From positions 1,002-65,001 of the forward strand of contig JAGVLN010000006.1 of the NCBI GenBank assembly GCA_020049805.1: DNA of 64,000 nucleotides, given 5' to 3'. The notes under the pieces were generated by a model, which saw only the letters and a program-made list of their open reading frames with translations, was not told where the DNA came from and ran no database searches. The stretch is from Rickettsiales bacterium (GTDB lineage Bacteria > Pseudomonadota > Alphaproteobacteria > Rickettsiales > JABSSG01). Each line of letters opens with the position of its first letter. The stretch's first letter is position 1. Below are positions 2,190-64,000 of this stretch, one piece after another. Both the position numbers and the translations under genes were made by a program.

Positions 2190-2486
2190 ATGAACAGCTT
2201 GAAAAATAACTATTACAAAACCCATATCTTTATTTGCACAAATGTAAAAGAGAGCGGTAAATGTTGTGGTAAAGAGCCTATTGCTAAACAAACCGTCTCC
2301 CAGCTCAAAAAACAAGTTAAAGAATTAGATGTAGGTGGTGAAGGCAATATTCGTATTTCATCTTCAGGATGTATGGGCAGATGCAGCGAAGGCCCAGTTG
2401 CTGTATCTTATCCAACCGCAACCTGGTATAATCTACTTTCTTCGGATGATTTAAAAAATTTATTTAACTTAATTACACCTAAATAA
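2190..2486 (+). CDS. Thioredoxin-like [2Fe-2S] ferredoxin domain protein
   Basis: 98 aa. HIFICTN...GKCCG and SSGCMGRCSEGPVAVSYP cysteine motifs are characteristic of the small thioredoxin-fold 2Fe-2S ferredoxin family. Confidence 0.7.
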   Translation: MNSLKNNYYKTHIFICTNVKESGKCCGKEPIAKQTVSQLKKQVKELDVGGEGNIRISSSGCMGRCSEGPVAVSYPTATWYNLLSSDDLKNLFNLITPK

Positions 2487-3363
2487 CTTTCTTATTTTTC
2501 TTATCAAACTGAATTAATAAAGCGCCACCTAGAATAATAACTGCCCCTACTAACTGACATAAAGTCAATTTTTCATCTAACAATATTACTCCAAAAATTA
2601 CTACACCAACTGGCTCTAATACTGATAAAATCGATGCCTTGGTAGGAGAAATAAATTTCAAAGCTTCTAATAAAAACAATATTGGTAGAGCTGTCGAAAC
2701 TAATCCTATGCCAATTACAAACCAAATATTTTGTTCAACTGGTAAAGCAACAGTTTGATTAAATAATGAAATAATAAAAAATAATAAACAACTGCCACTC
2801 GTAACTAATAAAGAAGAAACCAAAGGTGGCAAATCATTTTTTTGTTTACGATTTATAAAAATATAAAACGCATAGCTTAAAGCTGAAACTGTAGCCCAAA
2901 ATATCCCAAAGAAATTAAAATTTAACTTTTGATCATCATTTAATATAGCCATACCAATTATGATTATAAATATCGATATGTAGCAAATTTTAGTAATTTT
3001 TTGTTTTCCAAAATACCAATCTAATAAAACTACTGCTACAGGATAGGTAAAACATATTACCATAGCTAAGCCAGTGCTAATATACTGAACAGCTAAAAAA
3101 TATGTACCAGCAGAACCACTATAAAAAATTGAATTAATAATTGAAACCCTGATTAAGTCTTTTTCTAGCTTTATATTTCTTAAAACAAATATTGATATTG
3201 CAACCAAGAAAATTGTTGCAATGAGAAAACGCCAAAAAAGCATATTTGAAATTGAGAAGTCAAACTCCATTATATTTTTACCAAAATATCCTAACAAACC
3301 GTAAAGTAAGCCAGAAGTAATTGCGTAAAACCCCCCTTTTCCCTCCTTTGACAAAATTTTCAT
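2479..3363 (-). CDS. EamA/DMT-superfamily transporter
   Basis: 294 aa with about ten hydrophobic segments in two similar halves, the typical EamA architecture. Last gene of a co-oriented string with pip and the DAO-like gene. Confidence 0.75.
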   Translation of the reverse strand: MKILSKEGKGGFYAITSGLLYGLLGYFGKNIMEFDFSISNMLFWRFLIATIFLVAISIFVLRNIKLEKDLIRVSIINSIFYSGSAGTYFLAVQYISTGLAMVICFTYPVAVVLLDWYFGKQKITKICYISIFIIIIGMAILNDDQKLNFNFFGIFWATVSALSYAFYIFINRKQKNDLPPLVSSLLVTSGSCLLFFIISLFNQTVALPVEQNIWFVIGIGLVSTALPILFLLEALKFISPTKASILSVLEPVGVVIFGVILLDEKLTLCQLVGAVIILGGALLIQFDKKNKKVI

Positions 3364-3380: not shown

Positions 3381-4391
3381 TTAATTTTTCAGCTTTTCTG
3401 TAGCAACAACCAAAGCTTTAGCAATTCCATGGTCCACAGATGAATGACCTGCATCTGGTACTAAAATGAATTCTGATCCAGACCAATTTTTGTGTAGTTC
3501 ATAAGCTGAACTTACTCTAAGGATTACATCATACCTACCATGCACAATAATTGCTGGCAAATGTTTAATTTTAGCTAAATTATCTAGAATTTGGTTTTCC
3601 TCAAAAAAGAACTTATGCATGCTATAATGAGCAAATAATCGCGCACAACCTAGTACTAATATATCATTTTTCAAAATTTGTTCTATAATTTGAGCATTAG
3701 GTAATAAAAATGATGCAGTAAAATCATATTTTATAAAAGCACGAGCCGCCGCCATATGAATTTCTGCATTAGGATCCATAAGGCGCTTATAATATGATTT
3801 TATTAAATCTCTTCTTTCATTTAATGGCAGAAAGCAGGAAAATTCATCCCAAACTTCTGGAAAAATATCTTTCATACCATACCAAACTTGCTGAAACTCA
3901 CTTTCTTTCCCTAAGAATATCCCACGTAAAATAAATCCTAAACAACTATTCGGGTACGCTTCACCATAAGTCATCGCAAGCGCACTGCCCCATGATCCTC
4001 CAAAAATTAGCCATTTATCAATTTTTAGATGTTCACGTAAATTTTCTATGTCCTCGATTAAATCTTGGGTAGTATTTCCTTCAACCTCACCGAATGGTTT
4101 TGAACGACCACAACCTCTTTGATCAAAAAGTATAATTCTATAATGCTCAGGATCAAAAAATCTTGCACTATCAGGACTACACCCCCCTCCTGGCCCTCCA
4201 TGCAGGAAAACTACAGGCTTACCACTAGGATTACCATATTCACTATACCATATCTCATGTAACTCGGATACTCTTAGATAGCCTTCATTATAGGCCTCTA
4301 ATTTTGGAAATAAAATTTGATCTAATGTAAACTTAAGCTCATAAACTGAGTCTTGAATAATCATAAAATAATTATCTGTAATATTAGACAT
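3381..4391 (-). CDS. pip: Proline iminopeptidase (prolyl aminopeptidase, alpha/beta hydrolase)
   Basis: VVFLHGGPGGG oxyanion motif, GGSWGS nucleophile elbow, IVHGRYDV and GHS catalytic His context. Collinear with bacterial Pip over the full length. Confidence 0.88.
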   Translation of the reverse strand: MSNITDNYFMIIQDSVYELKFTLDQILFPKLEAYNEGYLRVSELHEIWYSEYGNPSGKPVVFLHGGPGGGCSPDSARFFDPEHYRIILFDQRGCGRSKPFGEVEGNTTQDLIEDIENLREHLKIDKWLIFGGSWGSALAMTYGEAYPNSCLGFILRGIFLGKESEFQQVWYGMKDIFPEVWDEFSCFLPLNERRDLIKSYYKRLMDPNAEIHMAAARAFIKYDFTASFLLPNAQIIEQILKNDILVLGCARLFAHYSMHKFFFEENQILDNLAKIKHLPAIIVHGRYDVILRVSSAYELHKNWSGSEFILVPDAGHSSVDHGIAKALVVATEKLKN

Positions 4392-4426: not shown

Positions 4427-5527
4427 TTAAATTCCATAAAATTTTTTTGCATTATCAATAATATTATCAAACTCCTCTTCATTAGGAGTTGTATCATTTG
4501 CTCCCCAAATAAATGTGCCTCCTATAACACCTATATCGTTCCCACACTCTTTATTATTTTTTTTAGGAAAAATATAAAAAGCGCGTTTACATTTTTGATT
4601 ATGTTTATTTTCTTCTTCATTCAAATAAACTAACAAGGTGTAATTAAGATCTTTAGGCTTTTGGTTTTTCAAAGTAATCAAATGACCTTGCACTGGAATT
4701 AGCTTTTCATCGTTGTTTAATAAATGAGAGCCAAAACCACTACAGTTAATAATAAATTTTGAATCAACATCTTTAAAACTTGTAACTTTTTTCTTAGAGA
4801 ATTTTATTCGAGATTTTAAATATTTAGTTAAAGCTTTAATCATATATGATGTATTCAAAAAGATACTATCATCATAGACAACCATTTGTCTAGTCGTACC
4901 ATTACCGAAATCTAAAATAACATCTCTAGCTGGTTTAAGAACGATATCTACATATGATTCTAATTGAGACTCTTGACGCGATCTAAAGTAAGCAGGTAAA
5001 ACCACTACTCCTTCCTTAAAAATTGGATATTTATTTTCAGCAATATCCAAATAAAACTTGTAACTATCAATGCCAATCTTATTAATTATTTTTTGAAGGG
5101 ATTGATCATTATTCATTGAAATTGGACAAAGCAGGCCTCCTGCATTCAAAGATGCTATATCCTTAAATCGTTCTGCTAAAATGATAACATTTTCATAACC
5201 ACGTTGAACAAGTTTATATGCAATAAATAATCCTATAATGCCTGCTCCAATAATAGTAATTGAAGATTTTTTATTTAGATTTTTAGAATAAGAAGCAGAT
5301 TCTAATAAATCAATAACATACACGGCAGACCCTGGTGCAAGAGTCCACCCCCCTCCTCCATGACCATAATTATGAGCTATAACCTTATCACCTATTTCTT
5401 CAATACTCATATTGGGTGAACCACGCCTTAAAGGACGGTAACATATAATTTTCTTGTCTAAATGAATATCATTTAATTTAGGAGGAGTAATTTTTATTCG
5501 TTCGTGTTTTGACTTATTTTCTATCAT
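4427..5527 (-). CDS. FAD-dependent oxidoreductase of the D-amino-acid oxidase (DAO) family, circularly permuted
   Basis: 366 aa. The [10 protein letters not shown] motif, normally C-terminal, lies at about aa 52-61 and precedes the Rossmann [15 protein letters not shown] at about aa 92. NCSGFGS and PVQGHLI motifs follow. The protein ends at the IGGTFIWG...[12 protein letters not shown] segment. Confidence 0.7.
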   Translation of the reverse strand: [366 protein letters not shown]

Positions 5528-5681
5528 AAGATTAGACTTATTTAGTATTAATCACTTAAATAAGTCTTTAACCATTATTTTAAATATCATCAACATAAAA
5601 ATGGCAATACATCAAAAATAAAGAGGCATTAGTATCAATGTCCCATTATGGAAAATAGCACGTATAAAATCTTATTTTTTA

Positions 5682-6365
5682 TTAATTTTCTATTTTAGCA
5701 ATCAAAGATGTGGGCTGGAGATTATCGAATATAGCGTGGTTATAAGCATCATTCCAAAAATGCCACTCAAGACATGTGCTTCTATAAAATGCTTCAATCA
5801 TTTTTTCTTTTATCTTGTCAGTTGCATCCTTAGCTAAAGCATCAAAAATATTAATACATTCATCAACAGTAGCACAAAAATCTTTACTAGAATAAGTCTC
5901 AATCCATCGCTCATAAGGATTATACCTTATTGATCTCTCGTTTATAAATAAACCCACCTCTCTATAAACCCAAAAACATGGTAAAATCGCTGCAACTCCT
6001 ATCTCTACCTGTTCAATCAAACAAATCCGTGCTAAATAACTAGTATAACTTAATGTTGCCGGCGTAATTAGCTTAGTTTCTTGGAAATTAAAAATTTGTT
6101 TGAAAAATTGATGCACCACTTCCTGTTCTTGATAAGCAGATTCGGAATAACATAAAAATTTTTTTGCATAATTAGGTGATATCTTAGCAGCTATAATAGC
6201 GAGACACCTTGCAAAATCTTGCAAATAAATGTAATCCTGTTCAATATAATAAGCAAATTTACTTCGATCCAAAGTTCCTTTCATTAACTGCTGATTAAAT
6301 GCATGACTTTTGATCTCATTTATGATCCTAGATGAAAACTCCCAAGCTGTAACAGATAATTTCAT
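5682..6365 (-). CDS. tenA: Thiaminase II / aminopyrimidine aminohydrolase (TenA family)
   Basis: 227 aa helical-bundle family signature (FAYYIEQDYIYLQDF) with a conserved Cys context (LPCFWVYREVG). Last gene of the thi operon. Confidence 0.85.
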   Translation of the reverse strand: MKLSVTAWEFSSRIINEIKSHAFNQQLMKGTLDRSKFAYYIEQDYIYLQDFARCLAIIAAKISPNYAKKFLCYSESAYQEQEVVHQFFKQIFNFQETKLITPATLSYTSYLARICLIEQVEIGVAAILPCFWVYREVGLFINERSIRYNPYERWIETYSSKDFCATVDECINIFDALAKDATDKIKEKMIEAFYRSTCLEWHFWNDAYNHAIFDNLQPTSLIAKIEN

Positions 6366-6369
6366 ATAT

Positions 6370-7185
6370 TTAATCTTCCATTATTTTATTTATTGTTGGC
6401 CAAATATGGTAAAAATGATTAACCGGACCTTTACCTCTCCCCACTGATATCTCTTGCGTTGCCTTCATTGCATTCCATAAATAACTTTTAGCAATCTGGC
6501 ATGATTTAATCAGAGGAAAGCCTAGAGCAATAGATGAGCAAATGGCTGCAGATAATGTACATCCTGTACCATGGGTATTTTTAGAATTAATGCGCTCTGC
6601 TTTTAGCCAAATTTTATTACCATCATTATCTAAAAAGAAATCATTTGAATATGCACTATTTGCATGACCTCCTTTAAGTAGCACCGCCTTAGACCCTAAC
6701 TTTAGAAGTAATTCTCCAAGTTTTTCAACATCACTTAAAGTTGTTGTAAGTCTATAAGCTTCTGGAAGGTTTGGAGTTATTATAGTTGTAATAGGAATAA
6801 GCTTATTTTTTAAAGTTTCAATAGCACCAGGCAAAAGTAATGGATCACCACTTTTGGCAACCATTACAGGATCAAGGATAATAGGTATGTTATAAGCATA
6901 TTTTTCTAGAAAATTTGCCACTAACTTTATAATTGGAGCTGAGAACAACATGCCAATTTTAATAGAATCTGGAATAATATCATCGAAAATTGTTTCTAAT
7001 TGTTCTTCGATGCATTTTAAAGGAATATCATAACAACTTCTAACACCGCATGTATTTTGTACTGGAATTGCAGTAAGCACTGACATACCATAACACCCAA
7101 ATGCTGAGAATGTTTTGAGATCAGCTTGAATTCCCGCCCCACCCGAACCATCAAATCCTGCAATAGATAAACATTTATGCTTCAT
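6370..7185 (-). CDS. thiD: Hydroxymethylpyrimidine/phosphomethylpyrimidine kinase
   Basis: GFDGSGGAGIQADLKT, DPVMVAKSGD and HGTGCTLSAAI motifs of ThiD. 4-nt overlap with thiM. Confidence 0.9.
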   Translation of the reverse strand: MKHKCLSIAGFDGSGGAGIQADLKTFSAFGCYGMSVLTAIPVQNTCGVRSCYDIPLKCIEEQLETIFDDIIPDSIKIGMLFSAPIIKLVANFLEKYAYNIPIILDPVMVAKSGDPLLLPGAIETLKNKLIPITTIITPNLPEAYRLTTTLSDVEKLGELLLKLGSKAVLLKGGHANSAYSNDFFLDNDGNKIWLKAERINSKNTHGTGCTLSAAICSSIALGFPLIKSCQIAKSYLWNAMKATQEISVGRGKGPVNHFYHIWPTINKIMED

Positions 7186-7970
7186 TGTAACTCCTTCATC
7201 TTTTCAAAATCTGGACTATATAATTCGTCAATGAAGTTAAGCCGAAATGTTCCTGGCTTATTAGTTTTTAAATGCGTTAAATTTCCGCATAATCCAAAAT
7301 AAGATGTGGCAAGCATAGCTGAGCTAAACGAATCTGAAGTAACAGCTCTAAATGCAGCAATTACAGCAGTTAAAGAGCAGCCCATACCAGTAATTAGAGG
7401 CATAACAGATGAGCCAAATTTTAAACATTTATGTTTAAACTCATCTACAATAAAATCTATTTCACCACTTATTACTACGGTGCATTGAAGAGATTTTGCA
7501 ATACTACATGCCGTATCTTTTGCATTATCTACAGAATGGGTTGATTCAACACCAAGTGTACGAGACTCTTTTTCTAAAAGCGCTATGATTTCACTAGCGT
7601 TTCCTCTTATAATATCTGCAAACATCATTAAATCTTTTGCAGTTTTAGTACGCACTAAGCTTGCACCAGCACCTACTGGATCAAGAATTATAGGCTTATT
7701 ATATTGTTGTGCTAAGTTAGCTGCTATTTGACATTTTTCAATAAAAGGATAATCTAATGTACCAATATTTAAGTATAAGGCGCTACTGATTTTTATCAAT
7801 TCTTCAATTTCACTTGCTTCACAAGACATTATTGGTGCAGCACCAATGGCAAGTAAACTATTTGCTACAAAATCCATTGTAACATAATTTGTAAGACAAA
7901 AAATAACTGGTTTAGATTTCCTAATCTGTATCAATACTTGTTCTATTTGATCAATCATAATTTTTACCAT
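7182..7970 (-). CDS. thiM: Hydroxyethylthiazole kinase
   Basis: LTNYVTMDFVANSLLAIGAAPIMS, ILDPVGAGAS, IRGNASEI and TGMGCSLTAVIAAF motifs of ThiM. The start may be the internal Met at 7958. Confidence 0.9.
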   Translation of the reverse strand: MVKIMIDQIEQVLIQIRKSKPVIFCLTNYVTMDFVANSLLAIGAAPIMSCEASEIEELIKISSALYLNIGTLDYPFIEKCQIAANLAQQYNKPIILDPVGAGASLVRTKTAKDLMMFADIIRGNASEIIALLEKESRTLGVESTHSVDNAKDTACSIAKSLQCTVVISGEIDFIVDEFKHKCLKFGSSVMPLITGMGCSLTAVIAAFRAVTSDSFSSAMLATSYFGLCGNLTHLKTNKPGTFRLNFIDELYSPDFEKMKELQ

Positions 7971-8604
7971 CTATAATTTTACGAAATTGTTTTACAGTTA
8001 AATTTGGATTAGTAGCTTCATGAATTGCACCTATTGTAGCTATACCATTCGCACCAGCTGACATAACACTCATCAGATTAGATTCATTAATTCCACCTAT
8101 TGCAATAATCGGGTGTTTTGCTATTGCCGATAAATCTCTTAAACCATCTATACCCCAGATCGTTGCGACATCAGGTTTACTAAAAGTTGGAAAAACAGCA
8201 CCAACACCAATATAATCTATCGGCAATTCATTTGCTGTATAAAGATCTGCAAGCGTTTCAATAGAAACACCAATAATTTTATCTGATCCTAAAATTTCTC
8301 GTGCCACTTTAGGATTACCATCAGATTGGCCCAAATGCACCCCTTCTGTATCTAACTTTAAGGCTAAATCAACATTATCATTAACAATAAGAGGAATATT
8401 GTAAGGATCTAAAATTTTCTTAAGTTTTATTCCAAACTGGAAAAGAGATTCATGAGAAGTGTTTTTTTCACGTAACTGTACAGAGGTAATGCCTGAATTA
8501 GCGCAAACTTTAATGAATTGGAGATATTGTTCTAAAGGAACATCGCCCCTATTGGTAACCAGCATAAATTTATAAAACTGATTCTTTAACGATTTATCAA
8601 GCAT
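7951..8604 (-). CDS. thiE: Thiamine-phosphate synthase
   Basis: VQLREK, GVHLGQSD and IAIGGI motifs on a TIM-barrel ThiE-length protein of 217 aa. Confidence 0.9.
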   Translation of the reverse strand: MLDKSLKNQFYKFMLVTNRGDVPLEQYLQFIKVCANSGITSVQLREKNTSHESLFQFGIKLKKILDPYNIPLIVNDNVDLALKLDTEGVHLGQSDGNPKVAREILGSDKIIGVSIETLADLYTANELPIDYIGVGAVFPTFSKPDVATIWGIDGLRDLSAIAKHPIIAIGGINESNLMSVMSAGANGIATIGAIHEATNPNLTVKQFRKIIDGKNYD

Positions 8605-8854
8605 GGTAATATCTCTTTTGAAATAAAGATATTAAGCTGCTTATTACACCGACTATATTACTATACACCACAAAACTAGAAGAGGTGTACGTACCATAAC
8701 CGATCCAGGCTATAGAACATACAAGATAATTCCATAACATAAGTATAGATATGTCATGAGCTGATTTTATTTTATAAGTTTTGTAAATTTGGGGCGTTAG
8801 CCCAATAAATGAAGTAATAGAGGCAATAATGCCAAATAGATCAACAACGCTCAC
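8597..8854 (-). CDS. SemiSWEET / PQ-loop family 3-TM membrane protein (first cistron of the thi operon)
   Basis: 85 aa with three hydrophobic helices and the PQ-loop motif LTPQIYKTYKIKSAHDIS after TM1. Size and layout match bacterial SemiSWEETs. GTG start directly after the riboswitch; 8-nt overlap with thiE. Confidence 0.75.
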   Translation of the reverse strand: MSVVDLFGIIASITSFIGLTPQIYKTYKIKSAHDISILMLWNYLVCSIAWIGYGTYTSSSFVVYSNIVGVISSLISLFQKRYYHA

Positions 8855-8940
8855 ATCTTCCTCCGCTAGTACTAACTAGATCAGGTTATAAGGGTATTTC
8901 TCAGCCAATTAAGCAAATGATAACTAGCACCCCTGGTGAA
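8855..8940 (-). promoter_or_regulatory. TPP (THI-box) riboswitch
   Basis: The minus strand reads UUCACCAGGGGUGCUAGUUAUCAUUUGCUUAAUUGGCUGAGAAAUACCCUUAUAACCUGAUCUAGUUAGUACUAGCGGAGGAAGAU, followed by GUG. All conserved THI-box blocks are present (GGGGUGC, CUGAGA, ACCC, AACCUGAUCU..AGCG, AGGAA). The SD GGAGGAA sits in the 3' strand of P1. Confidence 0.9.
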
Positions 8941-8955
8941 TAAATTTCAAAATGA

Positions 8956-9270: not shown

Positions 9271-9999
9271 ATGAGTAGAAAAAAATTTAATAAAGATCCT
9301 ATCGATACTAATCCTAGAAAAGTAAGTATAAACACTGTTACACCTTTTGCAAAGGTTGAAGAAACACCGAGCAAACAATGCTCCCTGGAGGATATTGGCA
9401 ATATCTTAGTTAGCAGTGCAGAAAAAGCCGGATTAATCGAAGGAGTTGCTACTATCGGCATTATGGTTGTATTAGGTTTACCTAATATTGCCTCTTCTAC
9501 TGCTACAGGTGTAGGAGCAGCTTTTGTAAGTTTTGCTATAAGAGAGTATGCCACAAAGTGTCAAGTTAATACACAATATTTAGGCGGGATAGTGGGAGGT
9601 GCTGTAAAATATTCAATAAAAGGTGGAAATCCTATAATTGGCTCGATAAATAATTTGGGTTATGAAGTATGTAATTATTATAACCTAAATCCTTACGGAT
9701 GCGCCTATACAGTAGAAATAGGGGAAGAATTATTAAAAGTTTCTTTATCACAAAATGCTAATTTATATGCAGCTTCTAAAGTAGGCCTTGTAGTAGGTAC
9801 CGCCCTTAGTTTTGCAGTCGGTTTTGTATATGTGCCATATAAAACTTATACGTCTAATGCAGTTAATTCTACTACACCAGATGGAGATTTACAGTCTAGT
9901 AACAATAATAGCGCCAGCGTGCATCCTATAAACGATAATGTTCCAAACCAAATGGACATTGTGGGAGTAAACGAGACACTAGTAGATCAACATGATTAA
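9271..9999 (+). CDS. Hypothetical membrane protein with paired Gly/Ala-rich hydrophobic segments
   Basis: 242-aa ORF, long for an AT-rich (stop-rich) genome. Paired hydrophobic segments GVATIGIMVVLGL-PNIASS-TATGVGAAFVSFAI, plus VGLVVGTALSFAVGFVYV. Hydrophilic N- and C-termini. No family recognised. Confidence 0.5.
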   Translation: MSRKKFNKDPIDTNPRKVSINTVTPFAKVEETPSKQCSLEDIGNILVSSAEKAGLIEGVATIGIMVVLGLPNIASSTATGVGAAFVSFAIREYATKCQVNTQYLGGIVGGAVKYSIKGGNPIIGSINNLGYEVCNYYNLNPYGCAYTVEIGEELLKVSLSQNANLYAASKVGLVVGTALSFAVGFVYVPYKTYTSNAVNSTTPDGDLQSSNNNSASVHPINDNVPNQMDIVGVNETLVDQHD

Positions 10000-60383: not shown

Positions 60384-63300
60384 TTATTTATTAGTCAGGA
60401 TATCAATTTGCTTGGTTGCCACTACTAACTTATCAGAATCAATTTCGATTATAGATTTTATTGAATTGATAAAATTATCAAAAATTTCTACTTTCTTGGC
60501 ATTAGCCTTAACCCATTCATCAATACTTTTATTAGAAATACTATCTGCAGAAGTAATAATTTTAGCAGCTAATCTTCTTTGATTATCATAAATATCATCT
60601 TTTATGGTTTTGATTAGCATACGTTTCCAATATGTATTAGCTGGTAGTTGATCTGCAGCATTTTTCAACCAATCAAGATGGAATCTATCCCCTACAGCGA
60701 AATATATTAGCGATACTTTAGATGCTGAAATCGAGTGACTTGTAGCTACCACGATAATATCCATAGCTGAATATAACATGTTAAGGCCGGCTAATTGCTG
60801 CCCTAAAGCAGGAGGTAAATTATTATCACAACAATACTTATATTTTTCAAAAAATCTAGTTTTCAATTCTCCAGTTAAAAACTTATCAATATTTTTAATT
60901 AAAGACCTAGTTTCTACAGCAAATTCACTAATAGCTTTCTCAATGTTCAATACTTGTGATTTATTTCGTAAAAACCAATAAATAGCAGTCTGAACAAAGG
61001 ATTGTATCATACCTAATAATTCAGTTTTAATTTTACTTTCTGAGTGATCTACCTCATACCATAATCTTTCTAAATCAAAAATTTCCCAAACAACACAAAA
61101 TGCTCTTGCGATATCACAACCGCTTAAACCTGTATATTCTTGAGCTACATGGAAAAAATAACTGCCAAGATAATTAACTATCTTATTAGCTATAACCGTT
61201 GAGATAATTTCTCTTTTCAATTGATGGTTTAAAATTTCATTCAAGTACTCTTTTTGCATCTTACTTGGAAAATAAGAAATTAGATATTTATTACAATAAG
61301 GGTCATCAGATAATTTTGATTTAAATAAGTTTTTATCAATAACGTTTTTACTATAAGCCATTAATACTGCAATTTCAGGTCTAGTAAATCCTCGTTGCGT
61401 ATTAAGCCTTGTTGTTATTGCTTCATCGCTTGGTAAAAATTCTATTTTACGATCAAGCAATTTATCCTGTTCTAGCTTATGCATAAACCTTACATAAGAC
61501 TCAAACATCTTAACACTATGAGCAGAAGAAATAGATAAAGACTGGTTTTGGATCTTATTGTCATATAATACCAACTCTGCTACTTCGTTAGTCATATCAG
61601 CCAATAATTTATCGCGTGTTTCAAGCTGCAATTTACCACTTTCTACTGCTGGGCTTAAAGCAATTTTAATATTTACTTCATGATCTGAACAGTCCACCCC
61701 TGCAGAATTATCAATGGCGTCTGTATTAATTTTTCCTCCATGAAATTCATATTCAATTCTGGCTAACTGAGTAAAGCCTAAATTACCACCTTCTGCGACT
61801 ACTTTACATCTCAAATCTTTACCATTTACTCTTACTGAATCATTACCTTTATTTCCTATTTGTTCATTAGTTTCAGACTCAGCTTTAACGTATGTTCCTA
61901 TACCCCCATTCCATAATAAATCCACTTTTGCAGTCAAAATATAACGAATCAAACTATCTGGATCGATTGTGTCTTGTTCTATTCCTAGCAGTGATTTAAT
62001 TTGAGGAGATAAATTGATAGATTTCGCCCCTCGCTCAAAAACCCCTCCTCCTTCCGAAATAAGTTTAGAGTTGTAATCAGACCAATTAGAATGAGGCAAG
62101 GAAAATAAACGTCTTCTCTCTTCAAAACTAATTGCTTCATCAGGATCAGGATCAATAAAAATATGAATATGATTAAATGCAGCTACTAATTTTATATGAC
62201 GTGAAAGTAACATGCCATTACCAAAAACATCACCAGACATATCACCGATGCCTACGGTTGTAATAGTATCCTTGTTTGGGTTAATTCCTAAACTCCTAAA
62301 ATGCTCTTCTACTGATACCCAAGCTCCCCTAGCTGTAATACCAATTTTTTTGTGATCATAACCTGCAGAGCCTCCAGAGGCAAATGCGTCTCCTAACCAA
62401 AAATTATATTCCCTAGAAACTTGATTAGCAATATCTGAAAATGTTGCTGTACCTTTGTCAGCGGCAACAACTAAATATGGATCATCTCCATCTAAACAAA
62501 CTACTTGTTTAGGATGTACTACTTTCCTATTAACTATATTATCAGTTATATCAAGCAGACCCCTTAAAAAAGTTTTATAGCATTCTACGCCTTCAGCCAT
62601 ATACTCTTCTTTAGTTGCTAATTGCATAGTATTTTTTACTAAGAACCCACCTTTAGAGCCAACTGGTACTATTATAGAGTTTTTAGTCATTTGTGCTTTC
62701 ATTAAGCCTAAAACTTCTGTTCGATAATCTTCACTACGATCAGACCACCTGATACCTCCACGAGCTACCTTACCTCCTCTCAAATGTATACCTTCCATAC
62801 GAGAAGAATAAATAAATATTTCAACGAAAGGTTTTGGTTGAGGTAAATCTAGAATAGCTGCGGAATTAAACTTAAGAGATATATAATCTTTATGATGATT
62901 ATTAGCACTAGTTTGAAAATAGTTTGTTCTAAGAGTATTATCGACTAGATCTAAAACTTTCCTAATAACTCTATCTTCAACACTATCCAAAATTTTATCT
63001 AATTCATGCTGAATTTTATGTCTTAATTTACTTATATCGGCGTTATTTTTTTCATTAGCATCAAACATCTTGTAAAATAATTCCACTATATGCTTAGGTA
63101 ATGCTGAATGCTTAATTAACACTGAACAAATATAATCTTGGCTATAAGGAAATTTAATTTGTAACATATACTTACAATAAGCACTGAGTAAAAATACTTG
63201 CCGCCAATGTAACCCTGCACTTAAAATTAAACCATTCATTACATAATTTTGAAGTTTGCCGTGATATATAACTTCTATCGCTTCTTCAATATTCGACTTA

Positions 63301-64000
63301 ATCTCATCTAAAGAAAACGTTTTTTTATTAGCTACTGAAAGTGAAAATTCTTGAATGAAAACTGTTAAACCACATTTAGCAACTTCTAAAACAAAGATAT
63401 CTTCTGCTAAACTTTGAAAACCTAAGTTCTCAATAATTGGCATTATCTTAAATAGTTCTATTTTATTTCCGAGAGTGTAGATTTTTAGATTAAAATGATT
63501 TTTTTTAGCATTAGGTTTTTGATATAAATTGAAGAAAATGTCATCGTTACTACTAAATTTCTCAATATATACTATATCTTCAACTGCATCTTCAACAGTA
63601 AAACGCGAATGATAATTAGAAGGAAACGCTTTATTATAAACTGATAATAACGTACTGAGATTATTTTTTCCGAACTTTTTCTCAATAAAAAATCCTAATT
63701 TTTCATTCCATAAACTGGTTGCGTGATCTAGCTCATGCTCAATCTTTAGTATATCAATATGAAGCTTGTTATTATCTCTTACTTTAAGCACAATATAAAC
63801 ATATGCTAAGGCCATGCTTGACATTTTAAGAGTAGAGTTAATAAATTTCCCTGGAATAAATTCCTTAACAACACCACGCACCTTATCAACAACATCTGAT
63901 GTCACTCTTAATTTAGGAAAGAACACTAATAAGTTTAAGAAGTTTTTACATTGAGTTGTTCTAGCAAAAACTAATAACCGGGGATTATTCAAGCAAGACA
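60384..64000 (-). CDS. gdh: NAD-specific glutamate dehydrogenase, large (about 180-kDa class) form; 5' end outside the window
   Basis: HLRGGKVARGGIRWSDRSEDYRTEVLGLMKAQMTKNSIIVPVGSKGGF and GDMSGDVFGNGML catalytic-domain blocks of the Bac_GDH family. The reading frame is still open at position 64000. Confidence 0.9.
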   Translation of the reverse strand, partial: SCLNNPRLLVFARTTQCKNFLNLLVFFPKLRVTSDVVDKVRGVVKEFIPGKFINSTLKMSSMALAYVYIVLKVRDNNKLHIDILKIEHELDHATSLWNEKLGFFIEKKFGKNNLSTLLSVYNKAFPSNYHSRFTVEDAVEDIVYIEKFSSNDDIFFNLYQKPNAKKNHFNLKIYTLGNKIELFKIMPIIENLGFQSLAEDIFVLEVAKCGLTVFIQEFSLSVANKKTFSLDEIKSNIEEAIEVIYHGKLQNYVMNGLILSAGLHWRQVFLLSAYCKYMLQIKFPYSQDYICSVLIKHSALPKHIVELFYKMFDANEKNNADISKLRHKIQHELDKILDSVEDRVIRKVLDLVDNTLRTNYFQTSANNHHKDYISLKFNSAAILDLPQPKPFVEIFIYSSRMEGIHLRGGKVARGGIRWSDRSEDYRTEVLGLMKAQMTKNSIIVPVGSKGGFLVKNTMQLATKEEYMAEGVECYKTFLRGLLDITDNIVNRKVVHPKQVVCLDGDDPYLVVAADKGTATFSDIANQVSREYNFWLGDAFASGGSAGYDHKKIGITARGAWVSVEEHFRSLGINPNKDTITTVGIGDMSGDVFGNGMLLSRHIKLVAAFNHIHIFIDPDPDEAISFEERRRLFSLPHSNWSDYNSKLISEGGGVFERGAKSINLSPQIKSLLGIEQDTIDPDSLIRYILTAKVDLLWNGGIGTYVKAESETNEQIGNKGNDSVRVNGKDLRCKVVAEGGNLGFTQLARIEYEFHGGKINTDAIDNSAGVDCSDHEVNIKIALSPAVESGKLQLETRDKLLADMTNEVAELVLYDNKIQNQSLSISSAHSVKMFESYVRFMHKLEQDKLLDRKIEFLPSDEAITTRLNTQRGFTRPEIAVLMAYSKNVIDKNLFKSKLSDDPYCNKYLISYFPSKMQKEYLNEILNHQLKREIISTVIANKIVNYLGSYFFHVAQEYTGLSGCDIARAFCVVWEIFDLERLWYEVDHSESKIKTELLGMIQSFVQTAIYWFLRNKSQVLNIEKAISEFAVETRSLIKNIDKFLTGELKTRFFEKYKYCCDNNLPPALGQQLAGLNMLYSAMDIIVVATSHSISASKVSLIYFAVGDRFHLDWLKNAADQLPANTYWKRMLIKTIKDDIYDNQRRLAAKIITSADSISNKSIDEWVKANAKKVEIFDNFINSIKSIIEIDSDKLVVATKQIDILTNK

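Follow-up and report, generated by a model that had tools for sequence, protein, structure and literature searches.

The window analysed here is a stretch of 64,000 nucleotides from a Rickettsiales bacterium (assembly GCA_020049805.1, contig JAGVLN010000006.1, positions 1,002 to 65,001 of the forward strand), and the gene of interest lies on its minus strand at 4427..5527, where it encodes a protein related to the flavin adenine dinucleotide (FAD) enzyme D-amino-acid oxidase (DAAO). The open reading frame (ORF) starts with ATG, has its stop codon at 4427-4429, and is preceded by an in-frame stop nine codons upstream of the ATG, so a longer reading is impossible. A protein identical to its product (P0001) is present in public collections. 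An earlier note, written from the DNA letters alone, had described an intact ORF at 4427-5527; this holds, with the qualification that the frame, of 366 amino acids, is on the minus strand. Judged from its sequence, the gene is intact and encodes a DAAO-type flavoprotein whose C-terminal ~75 residues have been relocated to the front. The ORF and its parts, with secondary structure taken from AlphaFold2 models and confidence given as the predicted local distance difference test (pLDDT), are:

4427..5527, minus strand: the whole ORF, for a circularly permuted DAAO-like FAD enzyme (366 codons plus stop; Pfam DAO matched in two swapped stretches)
5276..5503, minus strand: N-terminal segment, residues 9-84, equivalent to the canonical C-terminal ~70 residues of DAAO (~268-338; DAO profile 303-353; pig/human DAAO 272-339)
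5435..5437, minus strand: codon of R31, counterpart of DAAO Arg283 ('CYRPLRR' aligned to 'GFRPVRP')
5345..5374, minus strand: YGHGGGGW-loop motif, residues 52-61, in which G58 corresponds to DAAO Gly313 in alignments and Y54, G55, H56, G58, G60 and W61 are nearly invariant
5261..5296, minus strand: new linker, residues 78-89, from the former C-terminal helix to Rossmann strand beta-1 (modelled between helix 57-77 and strand 89-93, pLDDT ~98)
5174..5263, minus strand: Rossmann beta-alpha-beta unit with GAGIIG (GxGxxG), residues 89-118 (DAAO 3-45; Pfam DAO from position 2 onward)
4430..5260, minus strand: body, residues 90-366, equivalent to DAAO 1 to ~267 (Pfam DAO 2-297 of 353; DAAO 3-45 and 108-205; ~270-300 Foldseek columns)
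4562..4576, minus strand: YIFPK, residues 318-322, active-site hairpin with Tyr318 (Y318 and P321 nearly invariant)
4436..4477, minus strand: new C-terminal helix, residues 351-364 (from the model and the junction alignment)

Canonical DAAO-type enzymes carry the Rossmann motif at their extreme N-terminus. The window protein does not give a collinear DAO match of that kind, and its GxGxxG starts at residue 94. Pfam DAO (PF01266; gathering threshold 27.9) scores the native protein at 88.5 bits in two stretches, the main one aligning residues 90-364 to profile positions 2-297 of 353, so that the body stops ~56 positions before the end of the profile. Searched alone, the N-terminal 84 residues match profile positions 303-353 with residues 23-74 (E=2.5e-4). 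The check proposed in the earlier note, a search with this profile for two pieces in swapped order, thus came out as predicted. HMMER comparison with the sequences in the PDB reproduced each of the motif correspondences that the note had given for the N-terminal segment, the Rossmann start and the body: residues 46-83 align to pig DAAO 301-338, residues 90-127 to 3-45, and residues 201-286, which include PVQGHLITL, to 108-205. A small family profile, built from 18 sequences for the PDB comparison, placed its positions 51-107 on the C-terminal region of Rasamsonia DAAO (7CT4 325-381, E=2.4e-12) and its positions 50-97 on Cryptococcus D-aspartate oxidase (DDO; 9VPF 313-360, E=9.6e-8).

Rotation of the sequence in silico, with residues 85-366 placed ahead of residues 6-84, restored the canonical order. 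The rotated sequence matched Pfam DAO once, over the full profile (positions 2-353 of 353; 95.9 bits), and phmmer aligned it to pig DAAO 108-332 without a break, spanning the artificial junction. The same was seen with the family profile: in native form it matched DAAO in separate stretches of 25.5 and 15.5 bits in swapped order, while its rotated version (A2) gave one stretch of 40.8 bits to DAAO 108-333. In the rotated alignment the native C-terminus, '...NAKKFYGI', and the native N-terminus are consecutive along DAAO; the former ends in the loop after DAAO helix ~252-267 and the latter resumes in the same loop. The permutation is therefore clean, in that rotation restores an uninterrupted collinear alignment across the junction. 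Swapped homologous segments and full-length collinearity after rotation are both found here, in agreement with the earlier note, which had proposed a clean circular permutation and had noted that the chain ends just where the relocated segment would continue in DAAO.

The alternative that there is no permutation, and that the first 85 residues are simply an extension of unrelated origin, would have to treat the likeness around GHGG as coincidental. We give it practically no credence, since the segment on its own finds its place in the DAO profile, the family profile reaches the C-terminal regions of DAAO and DDO, the rotated chain aligns collinearly over its full length, and the body ends short of the profile by the ~56 positions noted above. 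Chance similarity around GHGG was excluded by the family-profile matches (E to 2.4e-12) together with the rotation.

Structure prediction led to a similar picture. An AlphaFold2 model from a 141-sequence alignment had a mean pLDDT of 95.5 and a predicted template modelling (TM) score of 0.93; a model from the 18-sequence alignment had the same secondary structure at a mean pLDDT of 82.5. The relocated segment consists of strand 23-34, which carries R31, strands 42-45 and 48-52, and helix 57-77, and its pLDDT is 96-98, so that in the model it belongs fully to a single compact domain. The helix that follows the HGG loop is the counterpart of the C-terminal helix of DAAO, and linker 78-89 has no counterpart in the DAAO alignments. 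In the Rossmann motif, G94, G96 and G99 are conserved and helix 97-108 follows GAGIIG. Foldseek comparison with the PDB returned DAAO or DDO as all of the 32 best matches (E down to 8.5e-12). Next came DMGDH, amadoriases, glycine oxidase, CmiS2 and L-amino acid deaminase at E of 5e-7 or worse, so that members of the DAO family outside the DAAO/DDO clade score at least 100-fold worse than the top matches. Neither the sequence search nor Foldseek found a solved PDB structure that is collinear with the whole chain. In an exploratory covariation analysis (mutual information, corrected by average product, with an effective number of sequences of ~128), the pairs 64-97, 68-97, 65-101 and 72-105 joined helix 57-77 to Rossmann helix 97-108 in a pattern like that of two packed helices. 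The sample is small and phylogenetically structured, cross-segment pairs made up 27 of the top 60, which is no clear enrichment, and we do not rely on this analysis.

The residues that position the substrate in DAAO are also present. In human DAAO, Arg283 and Tyr228 hold the alpha-carboxylate of the substrate, and Gly313 with the flavin C4=O holds the alpha-amino group (PMC6279847). In every alignment R31 pairs with Arg283 and G58 with Gly313. Conservation was counted over 141 family members of 26-60% identity, and at least 90% of them share R31, P32, R34, Y54-G55-H56, G58, G60, W61, the three Rossmann glycines, Y318, P321 and GG336-337. By sequence alignment, then, the carboxylate clamp (Arg283 plus Tyr228) and the Gly313 loop of the DAAO/DDO clade are in place. 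In the specificity pocket, DAAO Leu51 is kept as L132, Gln53 is replaced by Ala (Cys in the window copy) and Ile230 by Phe320; because these positions differ from DAAO, the substrate range may differ as well.

The permutation is shared widely. The earlier note had asked whether homologues have it and how far it extends, and the answer is that every full-length homologue seen has it; a relative is present in at least 566 species-representative genomes. In a protein collection clustered at 90% identity, at least 598 clusters match at E<=1e-3, and the best 120 of them show 97-100% query coverage at 51-60% identity. An exhaustive search of 50%-identity representatives gave 2005 matches at E<=1e-3, 573 at E<=1e-10 and 104 at E<=1e-30, and the full-length ones are collinear with the query from residue ~10 on, down to 28% identity. 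A hidden Markov model (HMM) of the N-segment matched 250 of 270 collected proteins, once in each and always before the Rossmann motif, with no leftover duplicate; the remaining 20 are fragments. Nearly all relatives terminate in 'FYG(I/L/M)'. The permutation is thus an old, family-wide trait of hundreds of species and no peculiarity of the window locus.

A scan of one genome per species located the relatives at 566 or more loci in many phyla. Among the matches listed, the clade of 50-60% identity includes Rickettsiales/Holosporales (Ca. Tisiphia, Cyrtobacter, Finniella), cultured Polynucleobacter, and metagenome-assembled genomes (MAGs) labelled as Actinomycetota, Planctomycetota, Verrucomicrobiota, Bacteroidota, Chloroflexota and others; its loci (L009-L056) come chiefly from lake and freshwater MAGs. 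The MAG labels 'Rickettsia typhi' and 'uncultured Yersinia sp.' in this clade look unreliable. The clade of 25-33% identity includes, again among the matches listed, Chlamydiae, Endozoicomonas, Cyclobacteriaceae, Caulobacter, Sphingomonas and others. Gene GC content tracks that of the flanks (r=0.97 across 33-70% GC), which marks the gene as a true resident of these genomes rather than a binning artefact. The high identity across phyla suggests that the gene has spread horizontally, frequently so within freshwater communities. A protein search of a plasmid collection gave as its sole match a distant, unannotated protein in Nonomuraea. In the Ca. Tisiphia endosymbiont of Nemotelus uliginosus (NZ_OZ183485.1) there are two gene copies ~61 kb apart (L038 and L073), whose products match at all of the 363 residues compared (100% identity); this points to a large duplication or repeat of recent date.

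Two kinds of variant occur within the family. Long forms of 430-550 amino acids (among them P0176, P0178, P0193, P0210, P0218, P0221, P0247 and P0267, of ~440-550) keep the same order and have an insertion of 150-190 amino acids in the lid/hairpin region, between query residues ~292 and ~325; being beside the active site, the insertion suggests a different substrate or a partner-binding module. Partial matches at L069-L072, L076, L077 and L082-L087 (Caulobacter, Sphingomonas, Niveispirillum and others) are probably long variants too. In P0180 (768 amino acids) and P0196 (779 amino acids), a SufS/CsdA-like class V domain of the pyridoxal phosphate (PLP) type is fused ahead of the permuted DAO domain, the N-segment beginning at residues 424 and 426, respectively; the PLP domain falls below equivalog cut-offs. 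Tandem DAO duplication was ruled out for both proteins, which are PLP-domain fusions instead.

Most relatives carry what appear to be N-terminal export signals. By heuristic leader calls in 120 close relatives, 92 have a hydrophobic N-terminal extension, 28 an RR (Tat-like) motif, 15 a lipobox-like motif and eight no leader. Most family members are therefore probably exported or membrane-anchored. The window oxidase itself has no leader peptide.

Taken together, these results make it highly probable in our view that the gene specifies a natural circular permutant within the D-amino-acid-oxidase branch of the DAO family (PF01266, GR2-type) of FAD enzymes, with a structure and chemistry like those of DAAO. 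The Arg-bearing strand, the flavin-facing HGG loop and the last helix, which form the C-terminal ~70 residues in DAAO, are encoded first, as residues 9-84; a new linker of ~12 residues connects them to Rossmann strand beta-1, and the chain ends after the helix that precedes the relocated segment in DAAO. The folded protein would share the three-dimensional structure of DAAO and its chemistry: Arg31 and Tyr318 would hold an alpha-amino acid, FAD would take a hydride from its alpha-carbon, hydrolysis of the resulting imino acid would yield a 2-oxo acid and ammonia, and O2 or another acceptor would reoxidise the flavin. FAD-dependent oxidation of an alpha-amino acid is suggested because the Arg/Tyr/Gly-loop triad is conserved and because the nearest relatives are DAAO and DDO; the profile scored E=3e-15 against DAAO in the PDB, 1e-11 against DDO and 1e-3 against glycine oxidase. 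The substrate is most likely a D-amino acid or glycine, to go by these alignments. In most species a leader of Sec, Tat or lipoprotein type would make the enzyme probably extracytoplasmic, and the window copy, having none, would act in the cytoplasm.

Several observations weigh against this interpretation. The assignment of Tyr318 is ambiguous: it aligns to Tyr228 with the rotated sequence in phmmer, or to Tyr224 with the rotated family profile. We favour the former by inference, as in the predicted hairpin (strands 312-323 and 332-341) Tyr318 would sit opposite GG336-337. Sequential Foldseek alignments plateau at TM 0.52-0.56 over ~270-300 columns; a plateau near 0.55 is expected if ~80 residues can be matched only out of order, so it is what a permutation predicts and no proof of one. 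The majority of the leaders resemble Sec signals more than Tat signals, and this is unusual for an FAD enzyme. The window copy, finally, is the most divergent member of its clade: of the 116 positions with at least 95% conservation in the clade, it is changed at 18, with substitutions that include S59G, H127L, G188Q, G194D and E341W, compared with one difference for the median member, and its activity may as a result be altered or weakened.

For the origin of the rearrangement, the standard model of circular permutation is tandem duplication followed by loss of both outer ends. The earlier note had invoked such a duplication with double truncation, and the clean junction fits it, so that we infer this model; what is missing is an intermediate, as no tandem or partly duplicated protein occurs among the 270 collected relatives. 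None of these has two copies by the N-segment HMM, and the long variants contain no second segment. The common termini, and the fact that the variants are far closer to each other than to canonical enzymes, suggest a single old permutation event.

The genes around the oxidase in the window bear on its function. Those nearest to it are:

8841-8944, minus strand: thiamine pyrophosphate (TPP) riboswitch (65.4 bits, above the gathering score)
7951-8604, minus strand: thiE
7182-7970, minus strand: thiM
6370-7185, minus strand: thiD
5682-6365, minus strand: tenA (TIGR04306 above its cut-off)
3381..4391, minus strand: prolyl aminopeptidase gene, 35 nt downstream of the oxidase (TIGR01249, 346.5 bits against a cut-off of 259.75)
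2479-3363, minus strand: EamA-family transporter gene, 17 nt beyond the peptidase

The peptidase gene is preceded by a good Shine-Dalgarno sequence, AAGAGGAGAG, and co-transcription of the peptidase and EamA genes with the oxidase is probable at this locus. We surveyed ORFs within 5 kb on either side at 87 related loci by all-against-all BLASTP and clustering. The peptidase/EamA arrangement was seen at none of the 87, and no neighbour recurred beyond 4-8 of them, with which the four encoding contigs inspected agree; the largest neighbour cluster is a high-GC ORF that is either spurious or ABC-type. The neighbourhood is thus not conserved and gives no guide to function. In three related genomes (L005 5332-5880, minus strand; L013 5277-5942, minus strand; and L015), a divergent neighbour belongs to the RidA/YjgF family, an imine deaminase family, and has an N-terminal leader of its own; this RidA-like protein is the sole functionally suggestive neighbour found.

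Because the oxidase gene follows thiE-thiM-thiD-tenA at a distance of 154 nt on the same strand, with the riboswitch at 8841-8944 ahead of the operon and no terminator between tenA and the oxidase in a simple scan, it could be supposed to encode a ThiO-like glycine oxidase for thiamine biosynthesis; ThiO is also the best NCBIfam match. This seems to us very improbable. The protein reaches 55 of the 250.8 bits required by the ThiO model (TIGR02352), with the best stretch confined to the Rossmann motif, and the closest structures and sequences are those of DAAO and DDO, not glycine oxidase. The adjacent thi genes all serve salvage: no de novo thiazole or pyrimidine genes adjoin the operon, thiG and thiS are not adjacent, and a salvage-only thi operon fits a salvage-only intracellular bacterium. 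A mostly exported family is, in addition, a poor fit with a cytoplasmic biosynthetic role. None of the 87 related loci has thi neighbours, by which a thi-operon link as a property of the family was ruled out. A different objection accepts the permuted DAAO fold and questions the substrate, which might be an opine, an N-substituted or peptide-bound amino acid or a cell-wall fragment, with the enzyme perhaps a dehydrogenase feeding the respiratory chain like Proteus L-amino acid deaminase. The lid/hairpin is unlike that of DAAO and is the site of the insertions in long variants, the pocket differs (Gln53 to Ala or Cys, Ile230 to Phe), the predicted localisation is extracytoplasmic or membrane-anchor-like, and some members are fused to SufS-like PLP domains. 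The conserved Arg/Tyr carboxylate clamp and Gly313-equivalent loop, which position an alpha-amino acid, speak for conventional substrates instead, as does the fact that the nearest relatives are clearly DAAO and DDO, and we judge such a change of substrate unlikely, though worth keeping in mind.

The state of the window copy is a separate matter. A formerly exported enzyme that has lost its signal peptide in a reduced intracellular genome might be decaying or functionally relaxed, drifting towards a pseudogene and no longer active as an oxidase. The changes at 18 of 116 highly conserved positions would fit this, as would the absence of the leader found in 92 of 120 relatives and a hydrophobic in-frame stretch just upstream that is cut off by stops. 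That stretch, CIAIFMLMIF at 5582-5611 on the minus strand, is in frame with the oxidase ORF with two stop codons between; equal hydrophobicity arises in 4% of spacer shuffles and in 1.6% of arbitrary 40-codon windows, and it is weak evidence for a relic signal peptide, chance in AT-rich DNA being the other explanation. Decay, the chief alternative for this copy, is nonetheless rather improbable, as the 366 codons are uninterrupted in 30% GC DNA, where stops arise easily, seven other close relatives also lack a leader, and the model has a pLDDT of 95.5. All residues conserved family-wide are kept (R31, YGHGG, GxGxxG, Y318 and GGTF). We take the window copy for a cytoplasmic, fast-evolving member that probably still functions. 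For the family at large, we put forward only tentatively that its members make up an undescribed class of their own, of amino-acid-oxidising flavoenzymes exported to the periplasm or surface, widespread in freshwater bacteria of many phyla and in Rickettsiales and Chlamydiae, horizontally spread and with a physiological role of their own, in which the permutation is tied to export or to extracytoplasmic cofactor loading. If this were so, the roles could be nitrogen scavenging from D-amino acids or cell-wall fragments, or H2O2 production, and the permutation would put the substrate-binding strand and the HGG helix right after the leader.

Among known enzymes, DAAO (EC 1.4.3.3; 1KIF, 1AN9, 2DU8, and the fungal 7CT4 and 1C0K) is the best match in sequence and structure to the permuted protein, at ~20-22% identity. 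The two have in common GxGxxG, NCTG, GGTF, the HNYGHGG loop, the carboxylate Arg (R283 in DAAO, R31 here) and the active-site Tyr. Unlike DAAO, which is peroxisomal or cytosolic, the permuted family has bacterial hosts and export signals in most members, a rotated chain with new termini in the loop after DAAO helix ~252-267, a longer hairpin after the Tyr and different pocket residues. D-aspartate oxidase (human DASPO 6RKF; Cryptococcus 9VPF) is of the same clade (Foldseek E ~1e-10, HMMER E 1e-11), and its residues 313-360 in 9VPF are those matched by the N-segment; its chain order, however, is canonical. Glycine oxidase ThiO (Bacillus 3IF9/7CYX; Geobacillus 4YSH; TIGR02352) belongs to the same Pfam family and is the top NCBIfam match, yet it is structurally farther than DAAO (E ~1e-6 versus 1e-11), canonical in order, cytoplasmic and linked to thiG/thiS, and the permuted protein remains at the 55 bits given above. 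Proteus L-amino acid deaminase (5HXW, 5I39), a DAO-family enzyme that acts at the membrane and has an N-terminal hydrophobic anchor, offers a possible analogy for the leader-bearing members; it is a weak match (E ~6e-3 by sequence, 3e-6 by fold), with canonical order, an extra insertion module and specificity for L-amino acids. Scores for DadA (NF001933 / PRK12409) were 28 and 30 bits against cut-offs of 383 and 494, and no NCBIfam model reached its cut-off for the permuted oxidase. Natural circular permutants are known in other nucleotide-binding folds: permuted DNA methyltransferases show the same type of rearrangement, with motifs rotated and fold kept, which is classically attributed to tandem duplication and loss of both ends; their fold and chemistry differ.

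In the literature searched (open-access papers and bioRxiv) we found no description of a permuted DAAO or DAO-family (GR2) enzyme, nor of a periplasmic DAAO. Relatives go under the public names 'FAD-dependent oxidoreductase', 'D-amino-acid oxidase', 'dadA' and 'hypothetical protein'. Domain-based annotation would see a truncated DAO match with an unexplained N-terminal extension, which leaves hundreds of genomes with a mis-described enzyme. These genomes appear to encode an unstudied, widespread and probably extracytoplasmic enzyme that has a reordered chain and, in all likelihood, ordinary DAO-family chemistry. Circular permutation as such is well known, and we do not regard this as a new kind of system. 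The family does indicate that the DAO/GR2 fold, normally begun by the Rossmann beta-alpha-beta unit, tolerates having its C-terminal strand-loop-helix moved to the front. DAAO is used in biosensors and as a chemogenetic source of H2O2, and the family could serve as a natural guide to engineering circularly permuted DAAO with new termini in a surface loop. Identities of 50-60% over genomes of 33-70% GC, mark the family as highly conserved, and the leaders of most members point to an unstudied extracytoplasmic oxidation of amino acids in freshwater bacteria and in intracellular Rickettsiales.

Other genes of the window, whose GC content is ~32%, include dnaE, aspS and genes for a class A penicillin-binding protein, a YhdP-like protein and a PAS histidine kinase. 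The threonyl-tRNA synthetase at 30930-32831 (minus strand) is 65-70% identical to those of Rickettsia, Ca. Arcanobacter and other Rickettsiales and 84% identical to metagenome proteins, by which the window is chromosomal DNA from an uncultured member of the Rickettsiales. Three plus-strand ORFs of 164-467 amino acids (37-1440, 1602-2096 and 9271-9999) lack any Pfam match at E<=1e-5; Rickettsiales commonly have such orphan or effector-like genes. At 60384-63992 (minus strand) lies a gene for an NAD-specific glutamate dehydrogenase of the Bac_GDH family, with its start near the window end, whose product of 1202 amino acids contains ACT2, ACT3, HM3, catalytic and C-terminal domains. Proteins of this family are usually ~1600 amino acids long, and the one in the window seems shorter.

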